Assembly (NCBI GenBank): GCA_016285085.1
Contig: JAEEQA010000002.1
Location: forward strand, 21,390-85,389
Length of the DNA: 64,000 nucleotides
DNA from: Bacteroidales bacterium
GTDB taxonomy: Bacteria; Bacteroidota; Bacteroidia; Bacteroidales; WCHB1-69
Direction of reading: 5' to 3'
In this document: piece by piece, positions 14,731 through 62,873 of the stretch
How the letters are laid out: the number at the start of each line of letters is the position of its first letter
How positions within the stretch are numbered: position 1 is the first letter of the stretch
The notes under the pieces: model-generated
Told to the model about the DNA's origin: nothing
The model's input: the letters and a program-made list of their open reading frames with translations, nothing else
The model's database searches: none
Translations under genes and position numbers: made by a program

Positions 14731-14772
14731 TAAAAGGTAAATGGTAGAAAGTAGGGAGTTAAAAGGTGAAAA
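14731..14772 (+). repeat. degenerate heptad array (TAAAAGG TAAATGG TAGAAAG TAGGGAG TTAAAAG GTGAAAA)
   Basis: 7-nt periodicity read directly. Preceded by a 2x GTTCATCAA 9-mer. Confidence 0.7.
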
Positions 14773-14790
14773 GAGTTTGAAAGTTTGTTG

Positions 14791-14798
14791 TAACTTTG
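14791..14798 (+). promoter_or_regulatory. -7 box TAACTTTG (pfkB-ispE operon)
   Basis: TAnnTTTGCGGCC, 22 nt before ATG 14820. Confidence 0.55.
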
Positions 14799-14819
14799 CG
14801 GCCTCAAATTTCACAAATC

Positions 14820-15797
14820 ATGAAAAGAGTTTTAGGCGTAGGAAACGCATTGGTGGACGTGATTGTCAATCTTCCCGATGAGGCTTTGTTTCAGGAATTT
14901 TCCTTGCCGAAAGGCGGAATGGAAATGATTGATGTCGAGCGGAAAAGAAAGCTTCACGCGGCCATTTCAAGCATGAAACAGAAGCTGGCTTCGGGCGGCT
15001 CCACCTCCAACACCATCCACGGACTGGCCCGTTTGGGCGCACCGACCGGTTACATCGGAAAGGTGGGAAACGACGAAATGGGTGATTTTTTTGAAGCCGA
15101 CATGAAAAAAAGCGGCATCCATCCCCACCTCATCCACACCTCGGAAACGGACACGGGCATTGCCACCACGCTGATGACGCAGGATGCGGAACGCACTTTC
15201 GCAACCTACCTCGGCGCGGCAGCCTCTATGTCACCGGAAGAAATTGACAATGAGATATTTAAAAATTACGACTGCATCCATGTGGAGGGTTATCTGATTT
15301 TCAACCACGATCTTATTCTGGAGATCTGCAAAAAAGCCAAAGCCAACGGCCTGAAAATCTCGATGGACATGGCTTCCTTCAATTTGGTGAAAGACCACCA
15401 CGATTTTGTGGAAATGCTTCTGAAAGAATACGTTGACATCCTGTTTGCGAACGAAGAAGAAGCGGCAGCGTTCACCGGCAAAAGCGGCGAAGAGTCGTTA
15501 GACATCCTTTCCCAATACTGTGAAACGTGCGTGGTGAAACTCGGGAAACACGGCTCGGTGGCGAACATCAACGGACAGAAAGCCCGCATCGGGACGAGCG
15601 GCGTGAAGGCTCTCGACACCAACGGAGCGGGCGATGCCTACGCTTCCGGATTCCTCTATGGCCTTATCAATCAGTACACTCCGGAAAAAACGCTCCGTTT
15701 GGCTTCCCGCATCGCGGACGAAATCATCGTGACTGCCGGTGCCAAACTTTCGGACGAACAATGGGCGAAAATCCGCAACGAAAAAGAACTGTTTTGA
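14820..15797 (+). CDS. PfkB-family carbohydrate/adenosine kinase
   Basis: Start at MKRVLGVGNALVDV (ATG 14820; the track starts at an upstream TTG). PfkB motifs GGSTSNT and DTNGAGDAYASGFLYG. Confidence 0.8.
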   Translation: MKRVLGVGNALVDVIVNLPDEALFQEFSLPKGGMEMIDVERKRKLHAAISSMKQKLASGGSTSNTIHGLARLGAPTGYIGKVGNDEMGDFFEADMKKSGIHPHLIHTSETDTGIATTLMTQDAERTFATYLGAAASMSPEEIDNEIFKNYDCIHVEGYLIFNHDLILEICKKAKANGLKISMDMASFNLVKDHHDFVEMLLKEYVDILFANEEEAAAFTGKSGEESLDILSQYCETCVVKLGKHGSVANINGQKARIGTSGVKALDTNGAGDAYASGFLYGLINQYTPEKTLRLASRIADEIIVTAGAKLSDEQWAKIRNEKELF

Positions 15798-17923: not shown

Positions 17924-17925
17924 CG

Positions 17926-18525: not shown

Positions 18526-19299
18526 TTATTCATACACACGTGCCTCAATGCCGAGGGCACGGACTTGGTCGGCAATCTTTTCCAACTCGGCTTTGTAAAC
18601 TTTAACTAACTGTTTGGCAGGTGTTTCACGATCAAGGGAATAGAGAACCACCCGCTTCGGTCGGAGCTCACCCACAATCTTGAGCCAGGCCGAAACATTC
18701 TCCTCGGAGGTGTTGTCGAACGGCACATCTTCAATGATGCCCTTCAGGAACATCGACTGCATGATGAACTTGCCGTGAAAATGGCGCAGTCCCTCCACCG
18801 TCTGTTCCATCGTGATCGGAATGGTGGGCCGGTTGATGAGCTGGTACAGTTCCGGAAGCCCGGCGTCCAACTTCAGCATCGGATTTTCAATTTTCAACAG
18901 GGCATCACGAACCGCATCGTTCTGCAACTGAGTGGCATTTGACAAACAGGTAATGACCGAATCGGAATAGTATTTATCACGAATAACCAACAGTCCATCA
19001 ATAATTTCCGGAAATTGAGGATGCAAAGTGGGTTCGCCGTTCCCGGAAAAGGTGATGCTGTCGATGTGCGTGTTTTCCGCCTTGCATTTTTGCAACTTCG
19101 CTTCAATGGCCTGCAAGATGATATCAGCAGGTGCAAAATTCTTTGCATCAATATCTTTCCGCAACGTCCAGCCACATTCGCAGTAAATGCAGTCAAACGA
19201 GCAGATTTTCACATCGGTAGGGGAAACATTGATTCCCAAGGAGCTGCCCAAACGGCGGCTGTGAATTGGTCCGAAAGCGATGGATTCCCAGAGGAACAT
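18526..19299 (-). CDS. radical SAM protein
   Basis: 257 aa. CX3CX2C cluster motif CSFDCIYCEC near the N-terminus, and GNGEPTLHP. Confidence 0.75.
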   Translation of the reverse strand: MFLWESIAFGPIHSRRLGSSLGINVSPTDVKICSFDCIYCECGWTLRKDIDAKNFAPADIILQAIEAKLQKCKAENTHIDSITFSGNGEPTLHPQFPEIIDGLLVIRDKYYSDSVITCLSNATQLQNDAVRDALLKIENPMLKLDAGLPELYQLINRPTIPITMEQTVEGLRHFHGKFIMQSMFLKGIIEDVPFDNTSEENVSAWLKIVGELRPKRVVLYSLDRETPAKQLVKVYKAELEKIADQVRALGIEARVYE

Positions 19300-19300
19300 A

Positions 19301-19335
19301 GGTTATAGGTTATAGGGGATAGGGGATAGTAATTA
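19301..19335 (+). repeat. heptad array GGTTATA GGTTATA GGGGATA GGGGATA GTAATTA
   Basis: Begins 1 nt from the start codon (19299) of the minus-strand radical SAM gene. Confidence 0.85.
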
Positions 19336-19464
19336 GATTTTCAAACGAAGCCGCCTCTTGTTTATTGTTTGTTTTTTCAATCTTTTCAACCTTCTGCATT
19401 ATACCTTTTACCTTACATTTTCTTTGATTGAACGAACGATCGTGCTAATGCTGAGAGCACGGTT

Positions 19465-19476
19465 GTGCGTCTCTAC
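19465..19476. repeat. half copy of the palindromic element (right arm only)
   Basis: TGTGCGTCTCTAC with no matching left arm. Confidence 0.6.
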
Positions 19477-19531
19477 TTGATGAACTTTATAAACCTGCAA
19501 CTTTATAACTGATTTTATGGTATTTTTGCCG
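19476..19531 (+). repeat. right copy of the 56-bp inverted repeat (promoter/leader module of folA)
   Basis: CTTGATGAACTTTATAAACCTGCAACTTTATAACTGATTTTATGGTATTTTTGCCG. Confidence 0.85.
19521..19528 (+). promoter_or_regulatory. -7 box TATTTTTG (folA)
   Basis: TAnnTTTGCCG, 17 nt before ATG 19545. Confidence 0.55.
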
Positions 19532-20036: not shown

Positions 20037-20602
20037 AACGACTGTTCATTGCCTTCAAGACGGAACTGGCTTCGGAATACGATACAATGCTGAAGCAGCT
20101 GAAACTGTCCACCCGTTACGACGACATCAAGTGGGTGGAAGGCCATTTGCAACATCTGACGCTCAAATTTTTAGACAAAACACCTGAATCTAAAATAGGC
20201 CCATTATGCCAGATTCTGGCAGAAATAGCGAAAGAAATGGAACCTTTTGAAATGAAAATCAACAAATTGGGTGTTTTCGGAAGTCAGTACCATCCCACAA
20301 CCTTATGGCTTGGTTTTGAAAAACAACCCGTTTTGAACCAGTTGTTTGAAAAAGTGGAAAAGAGGCTTACTTCCGAACTGGGTTTTAAAGCCAACGATGG
20401 CAATTTCGTGCCGCATCTTAGCCTCGGACGTATCAAAAAAATGGATAGCAAAAAACGCTTTTGGGAAGCTGTAAATAAAAACCAACCATCTTATTTTCAG
20501 AATTTTATAATGGATGAGATGATATTATACCGAAGCCAGCTGGAAAAAACAGGGCCTATTTATACGGAAGTGGGGAAATGGAGATTAGGGATTAGTAATT
20601 AG
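20033..20602 (+). CDS. thpR: RNA 2',3'-cyclic phosphodiesterase (2H family)
   Basis: 189 aa. Two HxT/S motifs (HLTLKFL, HLSLGR). The GTG start overlaps the folA stop (GTGA). Confidence 0.8.
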   Translation: MKRLFIAFKTELASEYDTMLKQLKLSTRYDDIKWVEGHLQHLTLKFLDKTPESKIGPLCQILAEIAKEMEPFEMKINKLGVFGSQYHPTTLWLGFEKQPVLNQLFEKVEKRLTSELGFKANDGNFVPHLSLGRIKKMDSKKRFWEAVNKNQPSYFQNFIMDEMILYRSQLEKTGPIYTEVGKWRLGISN

Positions 20603-20622
20603 GGAATAGGGGATAGAAAGTA
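20581..20622 (+). repeat. heptad array GAGATTA GGGATTA GTAATTA GGGAATA GGGGATA GAAAGTA
   Basis: Overlaps the last codons and the stop codon (20602) of thpR. Confidence 0.8.
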
Positions 20623-20635: not shown

Positions 20636-20672
20636 GGTAAGCCCCGTAGGGCCGAAGGAATACAGAAGGGTG
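20636..20672. repeat. degenerate copy of the double-hairpin element
   Basis: GGTAAGCCCCGTAGGGCCGAAGGAATACAGAAGGGTG shares GAATACAG(C)AGAAGGG with the copies at 40861-40877. Confidence 0.45.
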
Positions 20673-20696
20673 TGAAATGCCCGCATAAATAAACGG

Positions 20697-23131: not shown

Positions 23132-25084
23132 TTAATATCCGACAATGGTAAATTCGGTCCGGCGGTTCAATGCACGTCCCTCTTCCGTGTCGTTGGTGGC
23201 GATAGGCTTGCTCATGCCGTATCCTTTATAACTCATTCTGTTAGAATTAATTCCTTTATTTACAAGATAGTCGTAAACGGCTTTGGCGCGGTCGTTGGAA
23301 AGCTTTTCATTGTAACTTTCACTGCCTTGGTTATCGGTGTGTCCGCCAATTTCAATTTTTATTCCTTTATTAGAGGTCAAATAATCGACTAATTTGTTCA
23401 ATTCAACTTCCGACTCTTTTTTCAGCGTACTCTTGTCAAAATCAAAGAAAACGTTCCTTAAAACGAAAGATTCGCCCACTTCCGGACGTTTTAGTGCAAT
23501 ATTTTTCAAATAAGGTTCCAGTTCTGTATAGTTTTTCTCAATTTGGAAGTTTTCGGAATAAAGGAGGTAGTAAGGGTGTGAAACATTCATCAGGATGTTG
23601 CTTCCTGTGAGAATACAGGCGAGAAATTCGCCGGTAACAGGATCGGAGGAGGTGGAAGTGGTGACCTTGTTTGTGTTGAGGTCTATCATTTCGATGGAGG
23701 CATGCACAGGTTCGTGCGTTTTCTCGTCGATTACTTTTCCTTTCATGTATGTAACGGGCGTGGGGCGCAGTTGTGGGTCAAGGTTGAAATAGTAGAGGTC
23801 CTGACCGCCATAGCCGCCTTCCTTATCGGTTGAAAAATAGGCAGTTGTACCTGCTGCATTGATAAGGATGTTGATTTCGTCGGCAGGCGTGTTGATGGGA
23901 TAACCGAGGTTAACGGGTTTAGTCCAGCCAGTATCGGTCAGGGTAGAATAGAAGACATCCATACCTCCCATTCCGGGGTGTCCGTCTGATGCAAAATAGA
24001 GGGTTTTTCCATCCGCATGGATGAAAGGCGCGGCATCTTCACCGTCGGTATTGATTTTTTTGCCGAGGTTTTCGGGGACGGTAAACAGGCCCTCTTCTGT
24101 CATTGTGGTTTTCCATATATCCATTTTTCCAAAGCCGTCCGGTCGGTTGGAGGCAAAGTAAATGGTTTTTCCGTCGGGTGCAATAGAAGGCTGTGATTCC
24201 CAGAACTTTGTACAAACAGGTGCATCAAAATTACGAGGTCTAGACCAGCGGTTTCCAATACGTTTTGCCCAATAAAGGTCACAGCTGCCGTTTCCGAAGT
24301 CGGTGTTGCAGATGGTGTAAAACAGGTATTTTCCGTCGGGAGAAATACATTGTGCACCTTCATTGTAACCTGTATTTATGGGATAATCAAGTTTATAACG
24401 AGGTTTCCATTCACCGTTTCCCCTTTTGCTGGCATAAAAGTCCTCCTCCATCTGACAAAAAGCGCATTGGGTGTTTTCATCGCGAGGGCGCATTACCGTA
24501 AAGATGATTTCAGATTCATCGGCTACGACTGCAGGAAGGTATTCGTCATATTCCGAATTGATGTTGGGTCCGATATTGATGGGAGAGAAGTCCACGGGAT
24601 TTTTAATGGCATTAATTGCAAACTCGCACGTTTCCAATCCTTTATGTGTTTCTTTCATTAAAGGACAGTTGGGAAGAGTTTTGTCAAGATAGATGTTGTA
24701 ATGGTCTCTTGCGCTTTCGTACCGGCCCACTTTCACCTCTTCTTCGGCTGTAATGAAATAGAGGATGGGTTTGGGATTTTTTGCGAAACGTATGGCCTTG
24801 TTATAGTTGTCGGCGGCTTCTGCTGATTTCAAGGTGAAGTTATACATATCTCCTTGAATTACATAGATATCCGCGAACGTGGAGTCAATTTTTTTTGCTT
24901 TTGCCAAATAGTTTTCAACCTTTTTGAAATTCTTGTTATTGAGTTCAACTTTTGCTTTTTTGCACAGATCAATCACTTTTTGGTTGGTATTTTGGGCAAA
25001 AACAGAAAAAGAAAGTGCGGTAATAAACACAAAAATCGGCAAAATCCTGCCGATTTTTAGAAGTGTATGGAAAATCATATTCAT
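23132..25084 (-). CDS. OmpA-family protein with TPR and TolB-like beta-propeller repeats
   Basis: 650 aa. The C-terminus is an OmpA_C peptidoglycan-binding domain: IEIGGHTDNQGSESYNEKLSNDRAKAVYDYLV...NRRTEFTIV. The middle has repeated PxxSPDGKxLYFxS beta-propeller motifs. Confidence 0.85.
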   Translation of the reverse strand: MNMIFHTLLKIGRILPIFVFITALSFSVFAQNTNQKVIDLCKKAKVELNNKNFKKVENYLAKAKKIDSTFADIYVIQGDMYNFTLKSAEAADNYNKAIRFAKNPKPILYFITAEEEVKVGRYESARDHYNIYLDKTLPNCPLMKETHKGLETCEFAINAIKNPVDFSPINIGPNINSEYDEYLPAVVADESEIIFTVMRPRDENTQCAFCQMEEDFYASKRGNGEWKPRYKLDYPINTGYNEGAQCISPDGKYLFYTICNTDFGNGSCDLYWAKRIGNRWSRPRNFDAPVCTKFWESQPSIAPDGKTIYFASNRPDGFGKMDIWKTTMTEEGLFTVPENLGKKINTDGEDAAPFIHADGKTLYFASDGHPGMGGMDVFYSTLTDTGWTKPVNLGYPINTPADEINILINAAGTTAYFSTDKEGGYGGQDLYYFNLDPQLRPTPVTYMKGKVIDEKTHEPVHASIEMIDLNTNKVTTSTSSDPVTGEFLACILTGSNILMNVSHPYYLLYSENFQIEKNYTELEPYLKNIALKRPEVGESFVLRNVFFDFDKSTLKKESEVELNKLVDYLTSNKGIKIEIGGHTDNQGSESYNEKLSNDRAKAVYDYLVNKGINSNRMSYKGYGMSKPIATNDTEEGRALNRRTEFTIVGY

Positions 25085-25901: not shown

Positions 25902-25974
<73 letters not shown>

Positions 25975-26637: not shown

Positions 26638-26711
26638 GGTCGTGTGGCCGAACAGTCAGGCACAGGTCTGCAAAACCTGCTAAAGCGGTGCGACTCCGCT
26701 CGCGACCTCCA
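26638..26711 (+). tRNA. tRNA-Cys (anticodon GCA), CCA encoded
   Basis: Acceptor GGTCGTG/CGCGACC (one G-U pair), anticodon arm CAGGT-CTGCAAA-ACCTG, T arm AGCGG-TGCGACT-CCGCT, discriminator T + CCA. A -7 box lies 12 nt upstream. The T loop reads TGC instead of the usual TTC, so a tRNA scanner should confirm it. Confidence 0.7.
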
Positions 26712-27289: not shown

Positions 27290-27361
27290 TAGCCCCGCCG
27301 GGAATCGAACCCGAATTTAAAGTTTAGGAAACTTCCGTTCTATCCATTGAACTACAAGGCC
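27290..27361 (-). tRNA. tRNA-Arg (anticodon CCT)
   Basis: D arm GTTC-AATGGATA-GAAC, anticodon arm GAAGT-TTCCTAA-ACTTT, T arm TCGGG-TTCGATT-CCCGG. The acceptor stem GGCCTTG/CGGGGCT has three G-U pairs including 1-72, which is unusual. A -7 box lies 12 nt upstream. Confidence 0.75.
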
Positions 27362-40816: not shown

Positions 40817-40819
40817 GTT

Positions 40820-40861
40820 CCCCTTCTTTGAAGAAGGGGTGCCCGAAGGGCGGGGTAGTAG
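40820..40861. repeat. double-hairpin REP-like element, opposite orientation
   Basis: CCCCTTCTTTGAAGAAGGGGTGCCCGAAGGGCGGGGTAGTAG. Confidence 0.8.
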
Positions 40862-40869
40862 AATACAGC

Positions 40870-40899
40870 AGAAGGGGTGGCCGTAGGCCGGGGTAGTAG
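40870..40899. repeat. partial double-hairpin element, opposite orientation
   Basis: AGAAGGGGTGGCCGTAGGCCGGGGTAGTAG is the reverse complement of the 10734 copy core. Confidence 0.75.
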
Positions 40900-40968
40900 A
40901 ACACAATACCAACCTCGCCCCGTAAGGACAAAAGAAAATAGAATGAAATAATCAAAAACACCCATATT

Positions 40969-43848: not shown

Positions 43849-43890
43849 TACTGAAATGCAAGGATGCGATTATACGATGAAACTATAACG

Positions 43891-43918
43891 TAGAAAGTAA
43901 TAGGTAAAAAGTAAAAGG
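43891..43918 (+). repeat. heptad array TAGAAAG TAATAGG TAAAAAG TAAAAGG
   Basis: Between the 43327 gene and leader copy A. Same word family as 14731. Confidence 0.7.
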
Positions 43919-43944
43919 TTTCCAACGCACGCCCCCTCTTTCAG

Positions 43945-44109
43945 ACCTCCTACTTGTTACCTATCACCTTTTATGAACCCTCCGATTAGCCGCCATACTA
44001 CGACAAAACTACCTAAAGAAAACCTTCACATCTTCACACCTTCACTTCTTAGTTTCTTAACTCCTTAACTCTAAACTTTAGACTTTAAACTTTTAAATCC
44101 AAAATAATT
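43945..44109 (+). repeat. G-depleted leader module, copy A (ends at ATG 44110)
   Basis: Hand-aligned with copies B and C. ACCNNNN heptads, core CCGATTAGCCGCCATACTA, then CTT-type heptads. Confidence 0.85.
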
Positions 44110-45782: not shown

Positions 45783-45951
45783 ACTGAAAATTGTAAACCT
45801 CCTACCTGTCACCTATCACCTTTTACTACCCCACCGATAGCCGCCATACTATGACGGCACTACCAAAAGAGAACCTTCACTCCTTCACTTCTTAGTTTCT
45901 TCACTTCTTAACTCTAAACTATAGACTTTTAACTTTAAAACCCAAATAGTT
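45783..45951 (+). repeat. G-depleted leader module, copy B (ends at ATG 45952)
   Basis: Starts ACTGAAAATTGTAAACCTCCTACCTGTCACCTATCACC. Preceded by a -7 box at 45722. Confidence 0.85.
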
Positions 45952-46910: not shown

Positions 46911-47315
46911 ATGAGAAAAAGTATAGTTTTTATTGTCGTATTTTTGCTAATCACATTGATTTCCAAGGCACAGAGCGAATCTTATTACATTTATGATAAG
47001 GTGAGAATTTTAACAGAAAACGCTTCAATATATCATTTACAATTACAGCCCGGCCTCTCTGAAAGACAACAGTATATCATAGACAGTTTAGTTCGGGTTA
47101 ATTCATCTCAAGTCATTGTGACAGGGAATAATCATTATATCATTCAAGTTGACGACCACAATGCACAAAGAATAAAAAGAGAGATACTTTCATGCTCTAA
47201 TAGCATACTTTATTTCTCAAAAGAGTACCTATTTGCGCCGCACGAAGAACCAGTAGAAGGTAGGAAGTATAAAGTAGGAGGTCAATTCAACAGTTCAACA
47301 ATTCAACAACCATGA
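46911..47315 (+). CDS. small secreted protein, hypothetical (resembles the N-terminal pro-region of the nearby S8 peptidase)
   Basis: 134 aa. Signal peptide MRKSIVFIVVFLLITLISKAQ. Its 3' end overlaps the next gene by 4 nt. Confidence 0.55.
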   Translation: MRKSIVFIVVFLLITLISKAQSESYYIYDKVRILTENASIYHLQLQPGLSERQQYIIDSLVRVNSSQVIVTGNNHYIIQVDDHNAQRIKREILSCSNSILYFSKEYLFAPHEEPVEGRKYKVGGQFNSSTIQQP

Positions 47316-51995: not shown

Positions 51996-52161
51996 AAATT
52001 GAAAACCTCCTACCTGTCACCTATCACCTTTTACGAACCTGCCGATTAGCCGCCATACTATGACGGCTCTACCAAATTAGAACCGTACCCCCCTTCACTT
52101 CTTAGTTTCTTAACTCCTTAACTCTAAACTTTAGACTTTTCACTTTACCCCCCAAATAGTT
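51991..52161 (+). repeat. G-depleted leader module, copy C (ends at ATG 52162)
   Basis: Starts ACTGAAAATTGAAAACCTCCTACCTGTCACCTATCACC. The TGA inside ACTGAAA is the stop codon of the S8 peptidase. Confidence 0.85.
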
Positions 52162-53350: not shown

Positions 53351-53755
53351 ATGAAAGCAGCAATAAAAATATTGTTTATAGTCTGTGGTTTTATCTTTTT
53401 GTTCGTTTTCCACCCTTGTTTCGGACAAACACAGGACAAAGAAAGCATCTATGACAGACAAGGAAATAAAATATATTTTGACAAGGTAGAGGATGTCTTT
53501 CATATCGGATTTGCAGAAGGAACGGAGGCTAATACAAGAAATGAGGTACTAGCAGATCTTTCAAATATTGCTAACTACACTATGTTTCCCGACAGTTCGT
53601 ATCGTCTTATTATAAAACAAGGCTGTTCTGCTTTTTTCAAAGAAAAAGCATTAAAGAACAATGTTGTGACCTATTGTACCACCTTACAATACCGACGATT
53701 AGACGCACAACCGTGCGTCTCTACATACATTTTCCTCTTAACTCTTGACTCTTGA
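53351..53755 (+). CDS. small secreted protein, hypothetical
   Basis: Start at MKAAIKILFIVCGFIFLF (ATG 53351 inside the track ORF 53270). The C-terminal 20 codons run through a palindromic repeat and into the CTCTTRA array. Confidence 0.5.
   Translation: MKAAIKILFIVCGFIFLFVFHPCFGQTQDKESIYDRQGNKIYFDKVEDVFHIGFAEGTEANTRNEVLADLSNIANYTMFPDSSYRLIIKQGCSAFFKEKALKNNVVTYCTTLQYRRLDAQPCVSTYIFLLTLDS
53701..53724. repeat. palindromic element, left arm partly degraded
   Basis: AGACGCACAACCGTGCGTCTCTAC, in the last codons of the 53351 CDS (DAQPCVSTY). Confidence 0.7.
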
Positions 53756-53832
53756 CTCTTGACTCTTGACTCTTGACTCTTGACTCTTAACTCTTAACTC
53801 TTAACTCTTAACTCTTAACTCTTAACTTCTAA
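53735..53832 (+). repeat. tandem heptamer array CTCTTAA x1, CTCTTGA x6, CTCTTAA x6, CTTCTAA x1
   Basis: Counted by hand. The stop of the plus-strand gene (53755) and the stop of lspA (53829-53831, minus strand) both lie inside it. Confidence 0.9.
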
Positions 53833-54407
53833 CTCCCCGCCTCTTCCTTCTTATCCGAAAAATCCTTTAAGAAGAACAGCAGGCCGATGAGTCCCACGGT
53901 GACACAGCTGTCGGCGAAGTTGAAAATGGCAGGGAAGAAATACTCGCCGCCGAAGACCGGGAACCAGTCGGGCAGCAGGAACAGCGGGAAGTAGAACATA
54001 TCGACCACGCTTCCGTACAAAAACGGCGCGTAGCCGAAAATCACGCCGTAAAACAGGGAGTCAACGATATTGCCGATCGCGCCGGCCAGCACCATCGACG
54101 AAAGGATAACCGTGCCCGTGCGCAACTTCCCCAATTTAATCAGTTTGAACACATAGTAGGTCAGGAACCCGACCACGCCGATGCGGAAGAGCGACAGCAG
54201 CAGTTTGCCGATATTCTGACCAAAACTCACGCCGAAGGCAATCCCTTCGTTTTCGACAAAATGAAGAAGGAACCAGTGCCCGATGACGGGAATGGTTTCT
54301 CCGGGGGTCATGTTCGTTCTGACCAAAATCTTGATAATCTGGTCAATGACAACCAACACAACCATAACGATGATGGCCGTGAGGGTTAATTTCTTGCTCT
54401 TTTCCAC
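53829..54407 (-). CDS. lspA: lipoprotein signal peptidase (signal peptidase II)
   Basis: 192 aa. FVENEGIAFG, GAIGNIVDS, IFNFADS motifs. 4 TM helices. Confidence 0.9.
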   Translation of the reverse strand: MEKSKKLTLTAIIVMVVLVVIDQIIKILVRTNMTPGETIPVIGHWFLLHFVENEGIAFGVSFGQNIGKLLLSLFRIGVVGFLTYYVFKLIKLGKLRTGTVILSSMVLAGAIGNIVDSLFYGVIFGYAPFLYGSVVDMFYFPLFLLPDWFPVFGGEYFFPAIFNFADSCVTVGLIGLLFFLKDFSDKKEEAGS

Positions 54408-54812: not shown

Positions 54813-54837
54813 AGTTACTGGTTTTTAAAGTGAGCGG

Positions 54838-54845
54838 CAAAAATA
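54838..54845 (-). promoter_or_regulatory. -7 box TATTTTTG (dksA-like/lspA)
   Basis: TAnnTTTGCCGC, 26 nt before ATG 54812. Confidence 0.5.
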
Positions 54846-56647: not shown

Positions 56648-56652
56648 GGCGG

Positions 56653-56660
56653 CAAAAGTA
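56653..56660 (-). promoter_or_regulatory. -7 box TACTTTTG (DUF4296 gene, near-leaderless)
   Basis: TAnnTTTGCCGCC, only 5 nt before the GTG start at 56647. Confidence 0.45.
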
Positions 56661-56666
56661 CGAATA

Positions 56667-56701
56667 AATTGAAAACTGAAAATTGAAAACTGAAAGTTTG
56701 A
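56667..56701 (+). repeat. heptad array AAATTGA AAACTGA AAATTGA AAACTGA AAGTTTG
   Basis: Upstream of the minus-strand DUF4296 gene. The same words ACTGAAAATTGAAAAC open leader copies B and C. Confidence 0.75.
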
Positions 56702-57060: not shown

Positions 57061-57126
57061 CACTTTTTTCAAATGTAAACAGATAGGTTTTTCTTGATTT
57101 TTCCTCAAAAATATGTGGAAATCGTG

Positions 57127-57134
57127 TAAATTTG
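57127..57134 (+). promoter_or_regulatory. -7 box TAAATTTG (GAPDH-like / dikinase-like operon)
   Basis: 72 nt before ATG 57206. Confidence 0.45.
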
Positions 57135-57205
57135 CAACTCTTTTCCAGAAACATTGGAAATATTATAACTATTTTATTCTCAATAAGATAAAAAAGCAAA
57201 GAAGT

Positions 57206-58213
57206 ATGACATCTGTAAAAATCGGAATCAACGGCTTTGGAAGAATCGGAAAGATGGTTTTCCGGTTGTTGGAAGGCCGCGAGGATTTTGTCGTCACCCA
57301 TATCAACGACAAGATGGACACGCGCCTGATGGCACATCTGTTGAAATACGACAGCATTCACGGGCGGTTCGGTGCGGAAATCGGCTTTGACGAATCGCAC
57401 ATCATCGTCAACGGACGGTCCATTCTCGTTACCAACTACCCGTCACCGGAGCAGATTCCGTGGGACACGACCGGTGTCACGTACGTCATCGACTCGTGCG
57501 GGAGGTTCAAGACCCGGCCGGCCTTGCAAGGCCACCTGCGCGGCGGAGTGAAGCGCGTCATCCTCAGCTGCCCTCCCGACGACGCCTCCATCGAGCGTAC
57601 CGTGGTGATGGGGGTCAACCACCTCACACTCAGACCTGAAGACGACATCATCTCCAACGCCTCCTGCACCACCAACTGTATTGCCGTGATGCTCAAGGTG
57701 GTGAACGACGAGTTCGGCATCCGCCGCGGCTTCATGAACACCGTCCACCCGATGACCAACAACCAGAACCTGCAGGACGGCTTCCACAGCGACTACCGCC
57801 GCGCACGCTCCGCCCTCGCCAACATCATCCCCACCACCTCGTCCGCCATCCGCGCCACGCAGCTGGTCATCCCGGAAATGAAGAACATTTTCGACGGTTT
57901 CGCCACCCGCGTGCCCGTCGCCGACTGCTCCTTCGTGGAACTCACCGCGGAGCTGCATCACGAAACCACCGCGCACGACATCCGCGAAACCTTCCGCCGC
58001 TACGCCGAAGGGCCGCTCAAAGGCTTCCTCGAATTCACCGACGACCCCATCGTCAGCAGCGACATCACCAACAACCCGCACTCCGCCATCTTCGACGCCA
58101 TCGCCACCAAAGTAATCGGCGGCAACTTCATCCAAATCCTCGGCTGGTACGACAACGAGTGCGGCTATTCATCCAGAATCATCGACCTTATTAAATACGT
58201 AGAAACCTTATGA
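57206..58213 (+). CDS. glyceraldehyde-3-phosphate dehydrogenase family protein (divergent paralog)
   Basis: 335 aa from MTSVKIGINGFGRIGK. LLKYDSIHGRF, catalytic SNASCTTNC, WYDNECGYSSR. The usual S-loop segment STGAAKAVGKV is replaced by TSSAIRATQLV. Confidence 0.85.
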   Translation: MTSVKIGINGFGRIGKMVFRLLEGREDFVVTHINDKMDTRLMAHLLKYDSIHGRFGAEIGFDESHIIVNGRSILVTNYPSPEQIPWDTTGVTYVIDSCGRFKTRPALQGHLRGGVKRVILSCPPDDASIERTVVMGVNHLTLRPEDDIISNASCTTNCIAVMLKVVNDEFGIRRGFMNTVHPMTNNQNLQDGFHSDYRRARSALANIIPTTSSAIRATQLVIPEMKNIFDGFATRVPVADCSFVELTAELHHETTAHDIRETFRRYAEGPLKGFLEFTDDPIVSSDITNNPHSAIFDAIATKVIGGNFIQILGWYDNECGYSSRIIDLIKYVETL

Positions 58214-61200
58214 CCAACGAAATAAACTCCAAAGCCTTAGAGGTCAACCTCAAAAACACGAATGTAGAATACGTCATTCCCGACGAACACCAGTGGTTCA
58301 TCAAACAGTCGGAAAACCAGTGGGGCTTGCACAAACGCGTGGTGGAATTCTTCACCGAGTACGACCACCCGATGTCGAACCGCACCGAAGTGGTGAAGGC
58401 GCTGCCCAACGTCACCATCAGCGACTTCTGGCTCTACAAGGAACTTCCTCTCGAAGACCAGAAACGCATCGTGGACATCGTCCTCGCCATCTACGACAAG
58501 CTGTTGAGCGAGAAGCTGCCCCACACCAAAGCCAAGGACCTCGTCACTTACTTCCTCCGCTTCATCGACAGCAACGACGGCGTGCTCAACGCCTGCGGCG
58601 ACGGGGTGAAACGGTGCATCCAGATTTTGGACAAATACTTGGATGACAATGCATTCAGCTATTATTGCCATATCGGTCAATTCAAGGTAAAACTGGCAAA
58701 GGCCGCCAACAACCCCGACACGGCGGACATCACCTTCAAGATGATGCAACGTTTGGTGAAGAGCCATATCCAATATTGGCGCGAAACCACCCAGATTATG
58801 CAGTGGTACGAAAGCCATAAGGCCAAAATGTCCCGTGATTATTCACAAGAACTTGAAACATTGGGGGATAAAATGTTTGATGAGTTTGTGGGATTGGCTG
58901 ACAATGCAAAAAGTTGGCAGGAACTCTGTGACAACGCTTTCACGTTCGGCGACATCATCAAGGCGTTCCAAAGCAAGATTTATGTCTTTGCACACACCTC
59001 CGAACAGTTCAGCTACATCTTCTACCTGCTGCATCTTCCCGGCACGGTCGATAACCATCCGCAGCTCTTGGTAGAACTGAACAAGGTGATCAAACACGTT
59101 AGCAATGAGAAAGATGAGGACCTTTGCATTGCCTCCATCGACAACCTGTTTGAGCAGTTTGCCGACTTCCGCGACAGCCATCTGAACCTCATCCTTGATT
59201 CCATTTTTGAATTGGGAAAGGAAATCATCCATACCGACAATCACCGTCTGATCCGTCATTTGGAGAAGAAAATCATTGATTTCGGCTTTGTTACGCCCGG
59301 CGTGAAGTACGTCACCAACGACTGGGAACTGAAGGTGAACCCGTGCCACATCAAGAATGTGCGGGTGTGGCTCGAACTGGTGGAGCTGGCGCCCGAAACG
59401 ATGCAGCGTCTTCTTTCCGCCCTCATCATCAACCTGCGGATCGGCGGCATCTTCGTTTTCGACACCGACTTCTTCCAGAAGGACATCACCAAACTGCTCA
59501 ACTCCGAAATCTCGCCTGTTTACAAACAGACCAAGCAGTTGGCCCGTATTTTCCCCGTCTATTTCAACGAAATCGGTGCGGAAGGGCAGCTCCGCGATGT
59601 CTCCACCAAGGTTGACGAGCTTTCGCACCGCAACGACAAACTGATTCATTTCCTCCGTAAGCAAATCCACACGGAAGGCAATAACTCCCACATACAGATT
59701 ACGTTGGATGTCATCAGTTTCTGGTACGACCGCAAGAAGGAGCGTCTGCACGAGATTCTTCCGCCCAATGTGTACGAACTGGTGGAAGACCACGGCATTT
59801 GGGTGGACGGTGTCCACGACTGCCTGCACAAGTTCTGTGAGTTTGCCAATGTTCCGTTGGAGGAACTCATTGAAATGAAGAAAGATAAGGTGGAGCAAAT
59901 CGGCCGCAAAATCAACCATCCCGACGAGATCGACGTGCAGCGTGTGTGCCTCATCATCGAGCTTTACCAGCTTTTGAAAGAGAAATACATCTTCGACTCC
60001 ACCAATATCATCAACATCATGCGGCGCAACAGCTTTGTGGAAACCGAAGATGTGAACACGTTGGAAGAGTTGCTGAAAGGGAAGGATACGGTGGCCACGT
60101 TGGAGCATATCTTCTCCATAATGAGAAAGTTGAACGAAATCATTTTTGATCCGAAGCCGAGCACGGGGTGGGAAAATGTGGTCTATAAACGGCACATTGC
60201 CTTCGGCATCCCGTCGATGTACGGCTACTACCGCGAGAACAAGTTCGACGCTTTGGGACTGATTTTCCGTCTGGAGCGAATTGTCACCGTGCTTGTTCAC
60301 GACCTCATCGAGAACATCAACACCAGCATCTTCACCCTCAAGGCCATCAAGGAGATCTGCAGCACCATCCAGCTGCTGTACGAAGGGCTGAAACTTGACG
60401 GTGTCAGCGACCAGGGGTTCGAGTCGAACCTCAAGATGCTCCAATATAGTTTGAACTCCGGCTGTTTCACTACCGAGCAGTATATCAATCTGTTCCAGTT
60501 TATGGGAAGCAGCTTGAACGAAATCATCAGCAACTATTTCATTCGTCCGTACGAGCCGCTGCTGAAGATCATCATCCCGCAATTGATGGAAGAGAACATA
60601 ACGGACAAGGTGGAGTTGAAGAAGATTCTGGCCCAAAAGTCGGAGGTGTTCTACCGCGAACTGCTCTCCTCCTCGTTCCTTATCCAGCAGGTGGACAACT
60701 TCATCGGTGAAATTCTGAACAACCTCCGCACGCAGGCCAACCTGCTGTCGCCGGAGGAGGCGCAGAACCTGATGACCTACGACCAAGAGCTGGCTATCAG
60801 TCCGTTGTACCAGGAAACGCCGGCGGTCGATAACAAAGTGTTCCTCGGCGCGAAGGCGTACTACCTGAAACGGCTGGTGCTGGGCGGCTACCCCGTCCCG
60901 CCGGGCTTCGTGGTGACCACCGAGGTGTTCCGCCGTATGAACGCCATCCTGAAGGTGGCGCCCATCAACCGCGAGTTGGATCGGATGATTAAGCGGCAAC
61001 TGACTGCCATCGAGAAGATTACGGGACAAGAGTTCGGCAATCCGAAGAACCCGCTGTTGCTGAGTGTCCGTTCCGGCTCTGCCATTTCCATGCCGGGTGC
61101 CATGAACACGTTCCTCAATGTCGGCATGAACGACGAAATCACGGAACAGCTCAGCAAGCAGGACAACTACGCATGGACCTCGTGGGATTGCTACCGCCGT

Positions 61201-62313
61201 CTGCTGCAGACGTGGGGCATGGCGCATGGCCTCGACCGTAACGACTTTGACCAGATCATCTTGAATTACAAGAAGAAATACAACGTAACGCAGAAAATCG
61301 GGTTCACGCCTGAGAACATGCGGGAGATTGCGTTCGCCTACAAGCAGTTCCTCACCGACAACGGTATCGCCTTCGAGAGTGACCCGTTCAAGCAGTTGAA
61401 GAAGGCCATCCTGTGCGTGTTTGAGTCGTGGAACTCGCCGCGTGCCAAGGTCTATCGCAGCCAGATGCACATTGCGGAAGAGTGGGGCACGGCAGCCACC
61501 ATCCAGAAGATGGTGCTGGGCAACATCCACCGCGAGTCCGGTTCCGGCGTGGTGTTCACTCGCGATGTGAAAGAGAACCGCGCCAACATCCGCCTCACCG
61601 GCGACTTCTCGTTCCTCAGCCAGGGCGAGGATATCGTGGGCGGCTTGGTCAACACGCTGCCTATCAGCGAGGCACAGCGGGAGACGGGCTATCAGAATTG
61701 TCCCTTCTCGTTGCAATCACAATACCCCGAGATTTACAACAAACTGTTGGAGGTGGCGAAGAACATGATCGAGAAGGATGGTTTCAGCCATCAGGAAATC
61801 GAGTTCACCTTTGAAACGGCGAAGGGCGAGGATCTGTACATCCTGCAAACCCGCAACATGGTGGTTTCCAACCAGACATCAGTGGAAACCTTCGGCGAAA
61901 AACCGGAAAACATGGACAAGGTTGGAACGGGTATCGGCATCGGCAACGGCGTGCTGAACGGCATCATCGTGTTCGACATGGACGACATCCGCAAGGTGCG
62001 CAACGGCGACGACCCGACGCAGCAGATTGTGCTGGTGCGTCCCGACACCGTGCCGGACGATATCGAGCTGATCATCGAGTGCGACGGCTTGCTGACGGCC
62101 CGTGGCGGCGCCACTTCCCACGCAGCCGTGACGGCGGCGGCACTCGGAAAAACCTGCGTAGTGAACTGCGAGGCCCTGCACGTCCACGAGAAGGAAAAGA
62201 GCTGCACCATCAACGGCGTTCCCTTCAAGGTGTTCGACCCTGTCGCCATCGACGGCCGCAACGGCATCATCTACAAGGGAAATTACTTGGTCGTGCTGGA
62301 CGACTTCAACTAA
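58210..62313 (+). CDS. orphan dikinase-like protein: ~800-aa unknown N-terminal region + PPDK-type ATP-grasp and phosphohistidine swivel domains, no PEP/pyruvate TIM-barrel
   Basis: 1367 aa. Its ATG overlaps the GAPDH stop (ATGA). The C-terminal third has PPDK N-terminal signatures: LSVRSGSAISMPGAMNTFLNVG, GTAATIQKMVLGN, GSGVVFTRD, SQGEDIVGG, EIEFTFE..LYILQTR, and the swivel-His motif TARGGATSHAAVTAAALGKTCV. The protein ends ~55 aa later. Confidence 0.8.
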   Translation: MTNEINSKALEVNLKNTNVEYVIPDEHQWFIKQSENQWGLHKRVVEFFTEYDHPMSNRTEVVKALPNVTISDFWLYKELPLEDQKRIVDIVLAIYDKLLSEKLPHTKAKDLVTYFLRFIDSNDGVLNACGDGVKRCIQILDKYLDDNAFSYYCHIGQFKVKLAKAANNPDTADITFKMMQRLVKSHIQYWRETTQIMQWYESHKAKMSRDYSQELETLGDKMFDEFVGLADNAKSWQELCDNAFTFGDIIKAFQSKIYVFAHTSEQFSYIFYLLHLPGTVDNHPQLLVELNKVIKHVSNEKDEDLCIASIDNLFEQFADFRDSHLNLILDSIFELGKEIIHTDNHRLIRHLEKKIIDFGFVTPGVKYVTNDWELKVNPCHIKNVRVWLELVELAPETMQRLLSALIINLRIGGIFVFDTDFFQKDITKLLNSEISPVYKQTKQLARIFPVYFNEIGAEGQLRDVSTKVDELSHRNDKLIHFLRKQIHTEGNNSHIQITLDVISFWYDRKKERLHEILPPNVYELVEDHGIWVDGVHDCLHKFCEFANVPLEELIEMKKDKVEQIGRKINHPDEIDVQRVCLIIELYQLLKEKYIFDSTNIINIMRRNSFVETEDVNTLEELLKGKDTVATLEHIFSIMRKLNEIIFDPKPSTGWENVVYKRHIAFGIPSMYGYYRENKFDALGLIFRLERIVTVLVHDLIENINTSIFTLKAIKEICSTIQLLYEGLKLDGVSDQGFESNLKMLQYSLNSGCFTTEQYINLFQFMGSSLNEIISNYFIRPYEPLLKIIIPQLMEENITDKVELKKILAQKSEVFYRELLSSSFLIQQVDNFIGEILNNLRTQANLLSPEEAQNLMTYDQELAISPLYQETPAVDNKVFLGAKAYYLKRLVLGGYPVPPGFVVTTEVFRRMNAILKVAPINRELDRMIKRQLTAIEKITGQEFGNPKNPLLLSVRSGSAISMPGAMNTFLNVGMNDEITEQLSKQDNYAWTSWDCYRRLLQTWGMAHGLDRNDFDQIILNYKKKYNVTQKIGFTPENMREIAFAYKQFLTDNGIAFESDPFKQLKKAILCVFESWNSPRAKVYRSQMHIAEEWGTAATIQKMVLGNIHRESGSGVVFTRDVKENRANIRLTGDFSFLSQGEDIVGGLVNTLPISEAQRETGYQNCPFSLQSQYPEIYNKLLEVAKNMIEKDGFSHQEIEFTFETAKGEDLYILQTRNMVVSNQTSVETFGEKPENMDKVGTGIGIGNGVLNGIIVFDMDDIRKVRNGDDPTQQIVLVRPDTVPDDIELIIECDGLLTARGGATSHAAVTAAALGKTCVVNCEALHVHEKEKSCTINGVPFKVFDPVAIDGRNGIIYKGNYLVVLDDFN

Positions 62314-62352
62314 GAACTAAGAGTTAAGAACCAAGAACTAAGAGTTAAGAGT
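62311..62352 (+). repeat. heptad array TAAGAAC TAAGAGT TAAGAAC CAAGAAC TAAGAGT TAAGAGT
   Basis: Starts exactly on the TAA stop of the 1367-aa gene. TTAAGAG is the reverse complement of the CTCTTAA unit at 53735. Confidence 0.85.
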
Positions 62353-62362
62353 GCTTGCATAA

Positions 62363-62818
62363 ATGACCGATAAACAGAAACAATACGAGCTGTTGTACAA
62401 GCAGCTGCTGGCTTTGGCGGAAGGCGAAAGCGATGAGGTGGCGTTGATGGCCAATGCGGCTGCGTTGCTGCACGATGCCTTCCATTTCTGGTGGACGGGG
62501 TTTTACCGTGTGGTGGGCGAGGAGCTGGTATTGGGGCCGTTCCAGGGACCGGTTGCATGTACCCGTATTCCGTTCGGCCGCGGGGTGTGCGGCACGGCGT
62601 GGAAGATGCGGCAAACCATCATCGTGCCCGATGTGGAGCAATTCCCGGGGCACATTGCCTGCAGCAGCGCCTCCCGCAGTGAAATCGTGGTGCCATTGTT
62701 CCGCGACGACCGTGTGGTCGCTGTTTTAGACATCGACAGCGAGCATCTCGCCACGTTCGACGAAACCGACCGGGTTGGTTTGGAAAAACTGGCGGGAATT
62801 TTAGGGGATAGTAAATAG
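62363..62818 (+). CDS. GAF-domain protein (free methionine-R-sulfoxide reductase / YebR-like)
   Basis: 151 aa. WTGFYRVVGEELVLGPFQGPVACTRIPFGRGVCGTAW...SEIVVPL. Confidence 0.8.
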   Translation: MTDKQKQYELLYKQLLALAEGESDEVALMANAAALLHDAFHFWWTGFYRVVGEELVLGPFQGPVACTRIPFGRGVCGTAWKMRQTIIVPDVEQFPGHIACSSASRSEIVVPLFRDDRVVAVLDIDSEHLATFDETDRVGLEKLAGILGDSK

Positions 62819-62873
62819 GGTATAGGGGTTAGGGGATAGTAATTAGTAGTTAGTAGTTAGTAATTAGGGGGTA
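62804..62873 (+). repeat. heptad array, 10 units (GGGGATA GTAAATA GGGTATA GGGGTTA GGGGATA GTAATTA GTAGTTA GTAGTTA GTAATTA GGGGGTA)
   Basis: Overlaps the last codons and the TAG stop (62816-62818) of the GAF gene. Confidence 0.85.

Follow-up and report, generated by a model that had tools for sequence, protein, structure and literature searches.

What are the heptanucleotide repeats found at gene ends in this stretch of Bacteroidales DNA, and do they serve a function there? The stretch, here called the window, comprises 64,000 nucleotides of contig JAEEQA010000002.1 (GenBank assembly GCA_016285085.1, positions 21,390 to 85,389 of the forward strand). It carries tandem arrays of 7-nt units that abut or overlap stop codons, start codons and promoters. 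These arrays are specific in period and restricted to non-coding DNA. They behave as variable number tandem repeats (VNTRs), their units turn over at fixed sites and their variants occur in blocks, they vary the tails of proteins, and they are polar relative to gene ends. They are probably heptanucleotide simple sequence repeats (SSRs), that is, long SSRs of the short tandemly repeated repetitive (STRR) kind, made by slippage or unequal recombination and filtered by selection. We infer that slippage is the generator, that selection acts as a filter rather than for a function, and that the arrays are seeded from the stop codon. Comparison loci from other genomes and metagenome assemblies are designated by L-numbers (L001, L009, L082, L114 etc.).

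Period-7 arrays in the window

Arrays were detected with a lag-match score (+1 for a match, -2 for a mismatch, cut-off of at least 11), periods 4 to 15 were compared, and 30 block shuffles of the window served as the null. Period 7 yielded seven arrays with a score of at least 11, and the 30 shuffles yielded none. Every other period gave zero to two arrays, except period 14 (twice 7), which gave four. Tandem Repeats Finder, run independently, reported period-7 arrays at 19298, 19312, 20583, 40753 (9.3 copies), 43890, 44067, 53735 (14.4 copies), 56666, 62308 and 62802-62867. The arrays are therefore real and non-random, as the original prediction had it: they are specific to one period, absent from shuffles and found by a second program. 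That they are an assembly artefact or chance low-complexity sequence is effectively refuted already. Assemblers do struggle with them, since the short-read contigs L107 and L109 end within arrays, but the same arrays are present in independent assemblies or samples (L001; L122 and L126), shuffles contain none, the signal is limited to period 7, and related arrays occupy orthologous sites in many species.

All seven strong arrays lie within the non-coding 12-13% or so of the window, on a gene map that was checked by hand, anchored on Pfam hits and cleared by hand of spurious antisense open reading frames (ORFs). The one strong array flagged as coding, that of thyA, lies under such an ORF (39978-41021, minus strand), which runs antisense across thyA and the stop-free, C-rich strand of its array and is probably spurious. 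The lag-7 autocorrelation of non-coding DNA is 0.304, compared with about 0.277 at adjacent lags, and it drops to 0.276 after eight arrays are masked; arrays make up 5.4% of the non-coding bases. The signal therefore comes from discrete arrays, and the periodicity is not pervasive, as it had been called. At least ten loci with 4 to 14 heptads had been claimed. Seven of these are strong arrays; four loci are weak or degenerate, and one of the four (51988) has only 2.4 units. At least four unit families are represented in the window: (A/T)TAGNNN/GGGGACA, CTCTTRA (equivalent to TAAGAGT), AAAYTGA and GTAAAAG. Octamer tandem arrays are present beside the heptamers. A search of the window against Rfam matched three tRNAs only, with no RNA family overlapping the arrays.

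The strong arrays, read on the plus strand, are:
19298-19334 (+), ATAGGTT twice, ATAGGGG twice, ATAGTAA, TTAG; Tandem Repeats Finder and lag-match
40752-40817 (+), the thyA array, TAGGGTA CAGGGTA CAGGGGA TAGGGTA and CAGGGGA five times (9.3 units); Tandem Repeats Finder and lag-match
44067-44093 (+), AACTCTA AACTTTA GACTTTA AACTTT, at the 3' end of leader module A (described below); Tandem Repeats Finder and lag-match
53735-53834 (+), the largest array, CTCTTAA, CTCTTGA six times, CTCTTAA six times, CTTCTAA (14 units, 100 nt); Tandem Repeats Finder and lag-match
56666-56695 (+), AAATTGA and AAACTGA twice (4 units); Tandem Repeats Finder and lag-match
62308-62352 (+), TAAGAAC TAAGAGT TAAGAAC CAAGAAC TAAGAGT TAAGAGT; Tandem Repeats Finder and lag-match
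62801-62878 (+), the GAF array, 11 units, TAGGGGA TAGTAAA TAGGGTA TAGGGGT TAGGGGA TAGTAAT TAGTAGT TAGTAGT TAGTAAT TAGGGGG TAGGAAA; Tandem Repeats Finder and lag-match

The weak arrays, also on the plus strand, are:
14731-14779 (+), TAAAAGG TAAATGG TAGAAAG TAGGGAG TTAAAAG GTGAAAA; read from the sequence, score below threshold
20583-20620 (+), GATTAGG GATTAGT AATTAGG GAATAGG GGATAGA; Tandem Repeats Finder
43890-43919 (+), GTAGAAA GTAATAG GTAAAAA GTAAAAG; Tandem Repeats Finder
51988-52006 (+), AACTGAA AATTGAA AAC (2.4 units), spanning the stop codon TGA (51993-51995) of an S8 peptidase gene

Position of the arrays relative to genes

Five real genes have a stop codon that lies inside an array or forms its first triplet. 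The thpR stop TAG (20600-20602) is inside the 20583 array, so that the last six or so codons of thpR are encoded by the array. The thyA stop TAG (40752-40754) is the first triplet of its array. On the sense strand of lspA the 53735 array reads TTAAGAG/TCAAGAG, and the lspA stop (53829-53831, minus strand) is in the last unit. The first triplet of the 62308 array is the stop TAA (62311-62313) of a gene for a 1367-amino-acid (aa) PPDK_N/PEP-utilizer protein, and this array fills the 49-nt spacer up to the start of the GAF gene. All 11 units of the GAF array open with TAG, and the GAF stop is the TAG of the third unit (62816-62818). Two further genes had been listed as having arrays on their stops and can be removed. 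The repeat at the S8 peptidase stop is the 5' edge of the roughly 165-nt leader module C and no independent array, and the ORF at 53351-53755 (plus strand) is probably not a gene but spurious. This ORF has no Pfam hit, its exact product is not in a collection of 15 billion proteins, it contains a repetitive extragenic palindromic (REP)-like element, and a public assembly with the identical LspA has no gene annotated over the corresponding stretch. The 53735 array thus abuts the lspA stop only.

The remaining arrays lie elsewhere. The 19298 array touches the start codon of a radical-SAM gene (19297-19299, minus strand), as had been described, and is pyrimidine-rich on the sense strand of that gene. 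Divergent DegT-like and PfkB-like genes flank the 14731 array, which is immediately upstream of the -7 box of PfkB. The 56666 array is also upstream of a -7 promoter box, that of a DUF4296 gene (56650-56660, minus strand), and begins 5 nt from it. The 43890 array is 41 nt past the stop of the gene at 43327-43848. The 44067 array is 16 nt ahead of the start of a leucine-rich repeat (LRR) gene whose product is cargo of the type IX secretion system (T9SS); its heptads recur in leader module C (52120-52146), and the corresponding stretch aligns in module B.

Across 15 loci, 1 of 54 arrays is mostly coding, and 13 of the 54 (24%) overlap a stop, compared with 7.8% for random placement in non-coding DNA. 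The positional association with stops that had been put forward for testing is thus present, but an excess of this kind is also expected of arrays that fill short spacers. Because random placement is unable to separate function from spacer filling, the excess was not used as functional evidence.

Variation between strains and species

Unit number differs between strains at the GAF, thyA and lspA arrays. The VNTR behavior that had been anticipated is thereby confirmed, and the arrays are genuine VNTRs rather than strain-invariant sequence indistinguishable from generic low complexity. Strains that encode an identical 151-aa GAF protein have alleles of 10, 10', 11 and 13 units, and L009, the nearest named species representative, has no GAF array. 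At thyA, three lineages with >90% identical ThyA carry 9, 4.5 or 2 units of the same G-rich family, starting from the TAG (the 4.5-unit array, in a related lineage, has the unit TAGGGTA). A fourth lineage has no array at this site, and ten samples are identical within each of two lineages. The lspA site has 14 heptamers in the window and none in strains with an identical LspA; other strains, with identical or >95% identical LspA, have three other heptamer arrays or 6-10 octamers, and nucleotide homology to the compared strains stops at the lspA stop codon.

Octamer arrays are found at the lspA stop in L106-L110 and, within the window, at 44024-44050, 45875-45913, 47283-47309 and 24109-24131. 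The octamer ATGTGAAG has 6 copies at the lspA stop in one sample and 10 in another, the LspA of the two samples being identical, so that the register is not always 7.

Unit families are replaced at fixed positions. At the radical-SAM start, L114 (82% nucleotide identity) has AATGGTA GAAGGTA AAAGGTA AAAAGTA, a different unit family, between conserved flanks. The same locus has GGTTAGG AGTTAGG AATTAGG AGTTAGG at the place corresponding to the thpR stop, and GTAAAAG GTAAAAG GCAGAAA ACAGAAA in the DegT/PfkB spacer. At the 56666 site L082 has four units, substituted (TTTTCCA for TTTTCAG), and L009 has no array; the lspA 3' end of L009 carries the heptads of the 44067 array. Where an array overlaps the stop of GAF, lspA or thpR, the protein tails vary. 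The 90% GAF protein cluster includes the array-encoded tails GDSK, GNRG, GIGIRE and GIGNRD and one read-through form of 187 aa, and thpR products within a cluster end in ...RLGISN or ...RLGDAISD. The thyA and radical-SAM proteins are of constant length.

The stop of the 1367-aa gene could be compared most widely, in 16 species loci that hold the end of the gene and conserve its pairing with a GAPDH gene. A heptamer array begins exactly at this stop in the window and in 7 of the 16 species; L018, and probably L005, have a tandem repeat with a period of about 8-9, and eight of the 16 have nothing. The units are TAAGAAC in the window, TGAAAAT in L007 and L003, TAAAAAC/TGAAAAT in L009 and TAATAGT in L015. 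They are present in 2-9 copies, with two units in L003 versus seven in its sister species L007. In several loci the unit opens with the gene's own stop triplet, though the downstream gene differs.

Origin by slippage and selection

The proposed source of such arrays, and of their turnover, is slipped-strand mispairing or unequal recombination that keeps a 7-nt register. An insertion or deletion of 7 nt shifts the reading frame, which would confine surviving arrays to non-coding spacers and the final few codons of genes. In a compact genome with short spacers, growth may be expected to continue as far as a constrained boundary: the stop or start codon of a gene, or a -7 promoter box. Duplication of a heptamer in which the stop codon lies would leave the protein unharmed, and units bearing stops would let the array invade a dispensable C-terminal tail, the next in-frame stop being at most two to three units away. 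Survivorship of such units would account for both the stops in phase with the arrays and the strain-variable tails. The variants of the 53735 array are sorted in blocks (one A, six G, six A), and only 13 of 1716 possible arrangements have as few runs (p = 0.008, hand count). These blocks, together with the five identical distal units of the thyA array, fit local duplication and therefore support slippage.

Several observations weigh against slippage as the whole explanation. Among arrays within 60 nt of a stop, 24 of 29 are purine-rich on the sense strand (homologous sites among them are not independent), and by our own count the purine-rich strand reads away from the nearest gene end in 10 of 11 window arrays, the exception being 14731. 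The same polarity was seen in an independent sample of (TGAAAAT)n arrays, in which 19 abut stops in the sense and 7 in the antisense orientation. For this sample metagenome contigs were scanned for (TGAAAAT)3, and of the 129 hits the 48 inside long open frames were set aside; these are mostly antisense ORFs permitted by the stop-free complementary strand. Start-codon adjacency in the scan was not used, being inflated by the TTG within the unit. A stop triplet is present on the plus strand in 59 of the 69 window units (86%; random heptamers of intergenic composition would give 45%), in agreement with the earlier statement that most units contain one. The units of the GAF array keep TAG (in one case TAA) over four alleles, with variation at positions 4-7. 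The 1367-aa gene has a heptamer array at its stop in 8 of 17 loci, over a range of 67-97% protein identity; this recurrence is far above the per-spacer background and suggests a hot spot or maintenance by selection. Finally, 10 strain loci share one invariant form of the 62308 array, which separates the 1367-aa gene from GAF, and the adjoining GAF array varies. Pure slippage leaves the polarity, the recurrence at the 1367-aa gene stop and the invariant 62308 spacer unexplained.

Arrays that abut starts are pyrimidine-rich on the sense strand. Replication on the leading strand was tried as a cause of orientation and set aside as the poorer fit within these 64 kb: it fits 8 of 10 window arrays and fails for 44067 and 53735, and the rule based on gene ends fits 10 of 11. 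Long-range pairing might occur where one spacer holds both a purine-rich and a pyrimidine-rich array (43890 and 44067). Since slippage of DNA alone does not predict polarity, a secondary role at the level of RNA or transcription is possible, for example as an unstructured or protein-binding spacer.

Stop frames, RNA structure and G-quadruplex potential

The original prediction held that 7-nt units present stop codons in all three frames. The thyA array has a stop in one frame only and none in the other two. All three frames hold a stop on the sense strand in 17 of the 29 stop-proximal arrays, and on the antisense strand in 12. Most units of L023 and L024 (AAGGCGG, AAAGTCG, GATTTCG, AATTACG) have no sense stop, and many arrays there have no stop in any frame. 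In hand-delimited stop-proximal arrays the stop positions are less variable than the others (0.11 vs 0.25, p = 1e-6). In algorithmically delimited arrays stop positions are not conserved in preference to others (variation is lower in 16 arrays and higher in 17), and conservation of stop triplets was rejected as an ascertainment bias since the signal of the hand-delimited set is gone in the algorithmic set.

Single strands of the arrays have minimum free energies of about 0 to -5 kcal/mol, and 8 of 10 strands fall in the least structured 1-12% or so of genomic segments of the same length. Mononucleotide shuffles of the arrays are equally unstructured, so that the low structure is due to skewed composition. 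The suggested unstructured spacer is thus correct as a description, but the property follows from composition. By an in silico energy model for G-quadruplexes (G4), the thyA array, which fits the motif GGGG-N3, has a predicted G4 energy of -41 vs -3.4 kcal/mol, and the GAF array is marginal at -6.1 kcal/mol. Most arrays have no G-tracts, and the other families are unable to form G4. The G4 potential proposed for the G-rich arrays is thus predicted to be strong for thyA and weak for GAF.

Alternative explanations

The arrays might be selected as frame-independent stop pads, in which stop triplets at period 7 end translation in any frame as a back-up against read-through or frameshift. Five real genes with a stop in phase with the periodic stop triplet of the array, the high stop content of the units, the excess overlap with stops, the TAG or TAA retained in every GAF unit of four alleles and the lower stop-position variation in hand-delimited arrays all point this way. 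Nevertheless, the strongest stop-abutting array (thyA, GGGGACA) has its stop in a single frame, the 19298 array with its invariant TAG lies at a start codon and antisense to the adjoining gene, and others are upstream of -7 promoter boxes or in 5' leaders. The arrays are also dispensable between strains, as that of lspA is lost or replaced beside an identical protein and that of GAF is absent in L009. Units in L023 and L024 are mostly stop-free on the sense strand, and the per-array conservation test is flat (16 vs 17). Purine-rich units with a lone T hold T-R-R triplets, three quarters of which are stops, and an array reaching over a gene end has to contain a stop, an effect of survivorship. 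Stop enrichment is thus explained by composition and by survivorship at gene ends; we conclude that the stop content of the arrays is a consequence of these two, not a demonstrated function, and the stop-pad proposal is most improbable. A role for the G-rich arrays (GGGGACA, TAGGGGA, ATAGGGG) as G4 or other non-B elements that modulate termination, replication or mRNA decay at gene ends is very unlikely as well. The thyA array is a canonical G4-N3 repeat with strong predicted potential, and near-identical GGGGA(C/T)T repeats form G4 in vitro and are likewise stop-proximal on the coding strand (PMC4692102). Against this, just 1-2 of the 11 window arrays could form a four-tract G4, most families (CTCTTAA, TAAGAAC, AAATTGA, GTAAAAG) are incapable of it, the thyA array is down to 2 units in a related lineage, and Rehm et al. 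could assign no regulatory role to their repeats (PMC4692102).

Alternatively, the arrays could be cis elements at the RNA level, either unstructured, strand-asymmetric spacers or sites for single-strand-binding proteins (cold-shock or S1-like, about one per heptamer), which could help translation initiation of the next gene in the Shine-Dalgarno-poor Bacteroidota or set mRNA stability. As spacers, purine-rich tracts at 3' ends and pyrimidine-rich ones in 5' leaders would leave the mRNA between genes single-stranded. This explanation is unlikely, though it has the polarity in its favor, together with folding energies near zero, arrays that fill spacers between co-directional genes up to the next ATG, the 62308 spacer invariant in 10 strains, and the argument of MacGregor (2015) that cold-shock, S1 or Csr proteins bind heptamers near starts (PMC4679880). 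On the other hand, low structure is a by-product of composition that shuffles share, many orthologous spacers are array-free (8 of 16 species loci at the 1367-aa gene stop), and unit sequence is not kept at a given site, which argues against a sequence-specific binder. A third possibility is that the arrays are tracts of microhomology at recombination junctions used for cassette exchange, part of a mosaic system with REP-like hairpins and leader modules. The lspA stop and array are exactly where homology between strains breaks off, with different downstream genes in at least four lineages; collinearity of the window with L009 ends 5 nt before the GAF array; arrays at the 1367-aa gene stop persist despite a different downstream gene; spacers combine arrays, palindromes and promoter modules in a mosaic that shows presence/absence polymorphism; and L023 and L024 have arrays as inverted pairs around segments of 250-350 nt. 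But alignable blocks will end at hypervariable spacers whatever the cause, arrays persist at the thyA-PALP and 1367-aa-gene-GAF junctions with synteny intact, and no transposase or integrase is associated with the few junctions examined, so that this possibility is judged improbable. Much the same doubt attaches to a broader proposal, by which the arrays are a selected polar gene-end module across Bacteroidota, cyanobacteria and Xanthomonas that also serves as microhomology junctions for cassette exchange. A purine-rich tract could be seeded on the stop (or on the complement of the start) with the purine strand pointing away from the gene. It would act as an insulator of gene ends in transcription or in RNA, and possible roles are to block read-through or antisense transcription, to release ribosomes in any frame, or to act as a landing pad for Shine-Dalgarno-independent initiation. 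If such a module were real, recurrence at one stop over deep divergence with full turnover of units would mean that the tract is maintained and not its sequence. Slippage filtered by selection remains the preferred explanation.

Host and distribution

Several window proteins have a T9SS C-terminal sorting domain. The nearest GAPDH loci among GTDB species representatives are from uncultured Bacteroidales of the rumen and of yak, sheep, deer and horse gut (76-96% identity), and a 4.6-kb contig of a public metagenome assembly (L001) is 100% identical to part of the window. The heptamers had at first pointed to a cyanobacterium; that origin is rejected, since the T9SS sorting domains, DUF4296, the relatives among rumen Bacteroidales and the -7 box TAnnTTTG(CCG) mark the host as Bacteroidales. 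Window positions 57117-62900 are 93.6% identical in nucleotide sequence to L082 positions 1454-7230 (GAPDH, 1367-aa gene and GAF), compared with 82-84% elsewhere on that 199-kb metagenome scaffold (remaining parts of L082, and L114). As judged from these sequence identities, this suggests that the GAPDH/1367-aa gene/GAF block may have recombined recently.

Of the periods of long SSRs in 80 loci from other genomes, 7 is the most frequent in each group. Array density is very uneven, and most other genomes have none. Densities of 5-11 arrays per 21 kb are reached in three unrelated Bacteroidota metagenome-assembled genomes (MAGs; L023, L024 and L026) and in L038, a MAG of Muiribacterium, with wholly different units: AAGGCGG, AAAGTCG, GATTTCG, AATTACG, AATTCTA and TGATAAC (a permutation of TAACTGA).

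Heptamer arrays of L023 (5048-5441, 11019-11301, 17875-18118) and L024 (4415-5103, 11018-11070) are arranged as inverted pairs, for example four GATTTCG facing four CGAAATC and three AATTACG facing three CGTAATT. The pairs enclose segments of 250-350 nt with GC-rich hairpins, an architecture like that of miniature inverted-repeat transposable elements.

Neighboring intergenic elements

Other repeated elements share the spacers of the window. REP-like palindromes of the form GTAGAGACGC-N8-GCGTCTCTAC, with conserved arms and variable loops, are found at 7131-7158, 10666-10693, about 19453-19476 and 53697-53724. The family is also present in L094-L103 past the thyA array and in the DegT/PfkB spacer of L114, with presence/absence polymorphism between strains. 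In L094-L103 the palindrome is followed by four repeats of about 23 nt, GCGTCTCAAAA, and the loop is flipped (GGTC vs GACC) between samples. A dispersed GC-rich element of about 35 nt, GAAGGGGTGCCCGAAGGGCGGGGTAGTAGAAYACA, contains a short GCCC-GAA-GGGC hairpin. It is found at 40833-40867 and 40871-40905 on the plus strand and at 10728-10762 and 11396-11430 on the minus strand, with a related copy at 20636-20675. Copies come after the heptad arrays in the spacers of thyA and thpR; both L084 and L114 conserve the element, and Rfam has no match for it.

Three leader modules, at 43925-44109 (A), 45785-45951 and 51996-52161 (C), lie directly upstream of genes for T9SS-secreted proteins. Each is about 165 nt long, C/T-rich and G-poor, with a near-identical core, and ends in ...AAATAGTTATGAAA. 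The 3' part of the module is found at the lspA 3' end of L009, and on this sequence comparison the module or its heptad tail may be mobile or recombinogenic.

There are 12 copies of the motif TAnnTTTGCCG where 0.61 would be expected, and nearly all are correctly oriented and a short way upstream of the start of a gene or tRNA. Sites include:
14675-14685 (-), TAnnTTTGCCG
19521-19531 (+), TAnnTTTGCCG
54835-54845 (-), TAnnTTTGCCG
56650-56660 (-), TAnnTTTGCCG
63179-63189 (+), TAnnTTTGCCG

Presumably this is the -7 promoter box of Bacteroidetes, for which the consensus is TAnnTTTG, extended by GCCG. A promoter module of 40 nt is identical at 14675-14714 (minus strand) and 19492-19531 (plus strand). 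The three tRNA genes are:
25902-25974 (-), tRNA gene
26638-26708 (+), tRNA gene
27290-27361 (-), tRNA gene

Implications

The arrays create strain-specific C-terminal tails on proteins and are good potential markers for strain typing in this clade. They also produce spurious long antisense ORFs, such as that over the thyA array, and break short-read assemblies of the clade; the short-read metagenome contigs L107 and L109 end inside arrays, and caution is needed with copy numbers based on short reads. That the same polarity is seen in a third, unrelated phylum suggests a general property of bacterial heptamer SSRs.

Relationship to known repeat classes

The original prediction knew of no described element class with these properties, but such classes have been published: heptanucleotide SSRs that are stop-proximal, strand-polar and of G4 potential (PMC4692102), and start-adjacent heptamers, including some of Bacteroidetes (PMC4679880). 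The G-rich heptamers of Rehm et al. (2015), GGGAATC from Xanthomonas and GGGGA(C/T)T from Nostoc PCC 7120, have 2-26 units with a preference for four, are over-represented in non-coding DNA and form G4 in vitro (PMC4692102). The G-rich strand is the coding strand within 50 bp past a stop, overlap included, or the non-coding strand upstream of an ORF; length and sequence vary much between close relatives at conserved positions, and no function was found (PMC4692102). Calothrix heptanucleotides are among the repeats to which that paper refers (PMC4692102). Heptamers are, according to Mrazek et al. (2007) as cited in PMC4692102, the over-represented long SSR in bacteria, possibly through polymerase slippage. 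As summarized by later authors, that survey gives long SSR units of 5-11 nt, a sporadic phylogenetic distribution, and exclusion from coding DNA of units that are not multiples of three. MacGregor (2015) reported TAACTGA direct repeats near start codons in marine Beggiatoaceae, 15 cyanobacteria and five Bacteroidetes, with other heptamer repeats in the same spacers and cold-shock, S1-like or Csr proteins as candidate binders (PMC4679880). SSRs at contingency loci include hepta- and tetranucleotide repeats that drive phase variation in Haemophilus and Neisseria (PMC2651432; PMC12721329), and STRR sequences have been used for strain fingerprinting (PMC5088731). Our literature search found no publication that links heptanucleotide repeats with Bacteroides.

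The window arrays have the attributes of heptanucleotide long SSRs, namely tandem units of 7 nt, confinement to non-coding DNA, VNTR polymorphism and several unit families. Period 7 is the top class here and in the 80 comparison loci, as in the survey of Mrazek et al., which covers neither this uncultured lineage nor phase with stop codons. STRR heptanucleotide repeats, reportedly described by Mazel in 1990 from heterocystous cyanobacteria (Calothrix and Anabaena), resemble the window arrays in their head-to-tail 7-nt units, several families per genome, intergenic position and strain variability, and the window units GGGGACA/GGGGATA are one base off the STRR1-type GGGGA(C/T)T. The host, a rumen Bacteroidales, is different, and so are most units (CTCTTAA, TAAGAAC, AAATTGA, GTAAAAG). 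STRR in the strict sense (heterocystous cyanobacteria; CCCCAGT, TTGGTCA, CAACAGT) are not matched, the nearest window unit being GGGGACA versus GGGGACT, the permuted complement of CCCCAGT.

The polarity and stop-proximal placement of the G4 heptamers of Rehm et al. are found here too (24 of 29 stop-proximal arrays; 19 vs 7 in the metagenome sample), although only the thyA array and, weakly, the GAF array are predicted to be capable of G4, and the phylum is different. Those heptamers are under-represented between divergent genes, and 2 of the 11 window arrays (in 64 kb) lie between such genes. Like the TAACTGA repeats, the window arrays are intergenic heptamers that often lie a few nucleotides from a start and sometimes just past a stop, with stop triplets in the "forward" orientation, and some Bacteroidetes spacers likewise have long arrays and other heptamers. 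The window units AAACTGA/AAATTGA (equivalent to TGAAAAC/TGAAAAT, at 56666 and 51988) are one-base variants of TAACTGA, and L026 has arrays of exactly this unit as TGATAAC. The exact unit is absent from the window, however, its arrays abut stops more than starts, and many unrelated families coexist. Hypermutable unit number, positions in promoters, 5' untranslated regions or ORF ends, and altered protein ends are shared with contingency SSRs. The window arrays differ in lying mostly on or past the stops of housekeeping genes (thyA, lspA, thpR), where a change in units alters a few C-terminal residues and does not switch a gene on or off, and there is no enrichment of arrays at the 5' ends of surface-antigen genes in the window. 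Contingency SSRs typically act on surface or antigen genes, through a frameshift at the 5' end of the ORF or through promoter spacing, and the window arrays do not fit this pattern. Changes of unit number in the promoter-proximal arrays at 56666 and 14731 could alter the spacing upstream of the -7 box.

No new class of element is opened by these arrays, and the class itself, the placement at stops, the polarity, the variability and the G4 idea are already published. What is new is the host lineage, the phase-locking of stops with units, the strain-variable protein tails and the turnover of unit families at fixed sites, which extend STRR-like heptanucleotide arrays to uncultured Bacteroidales of the rumen and gut.

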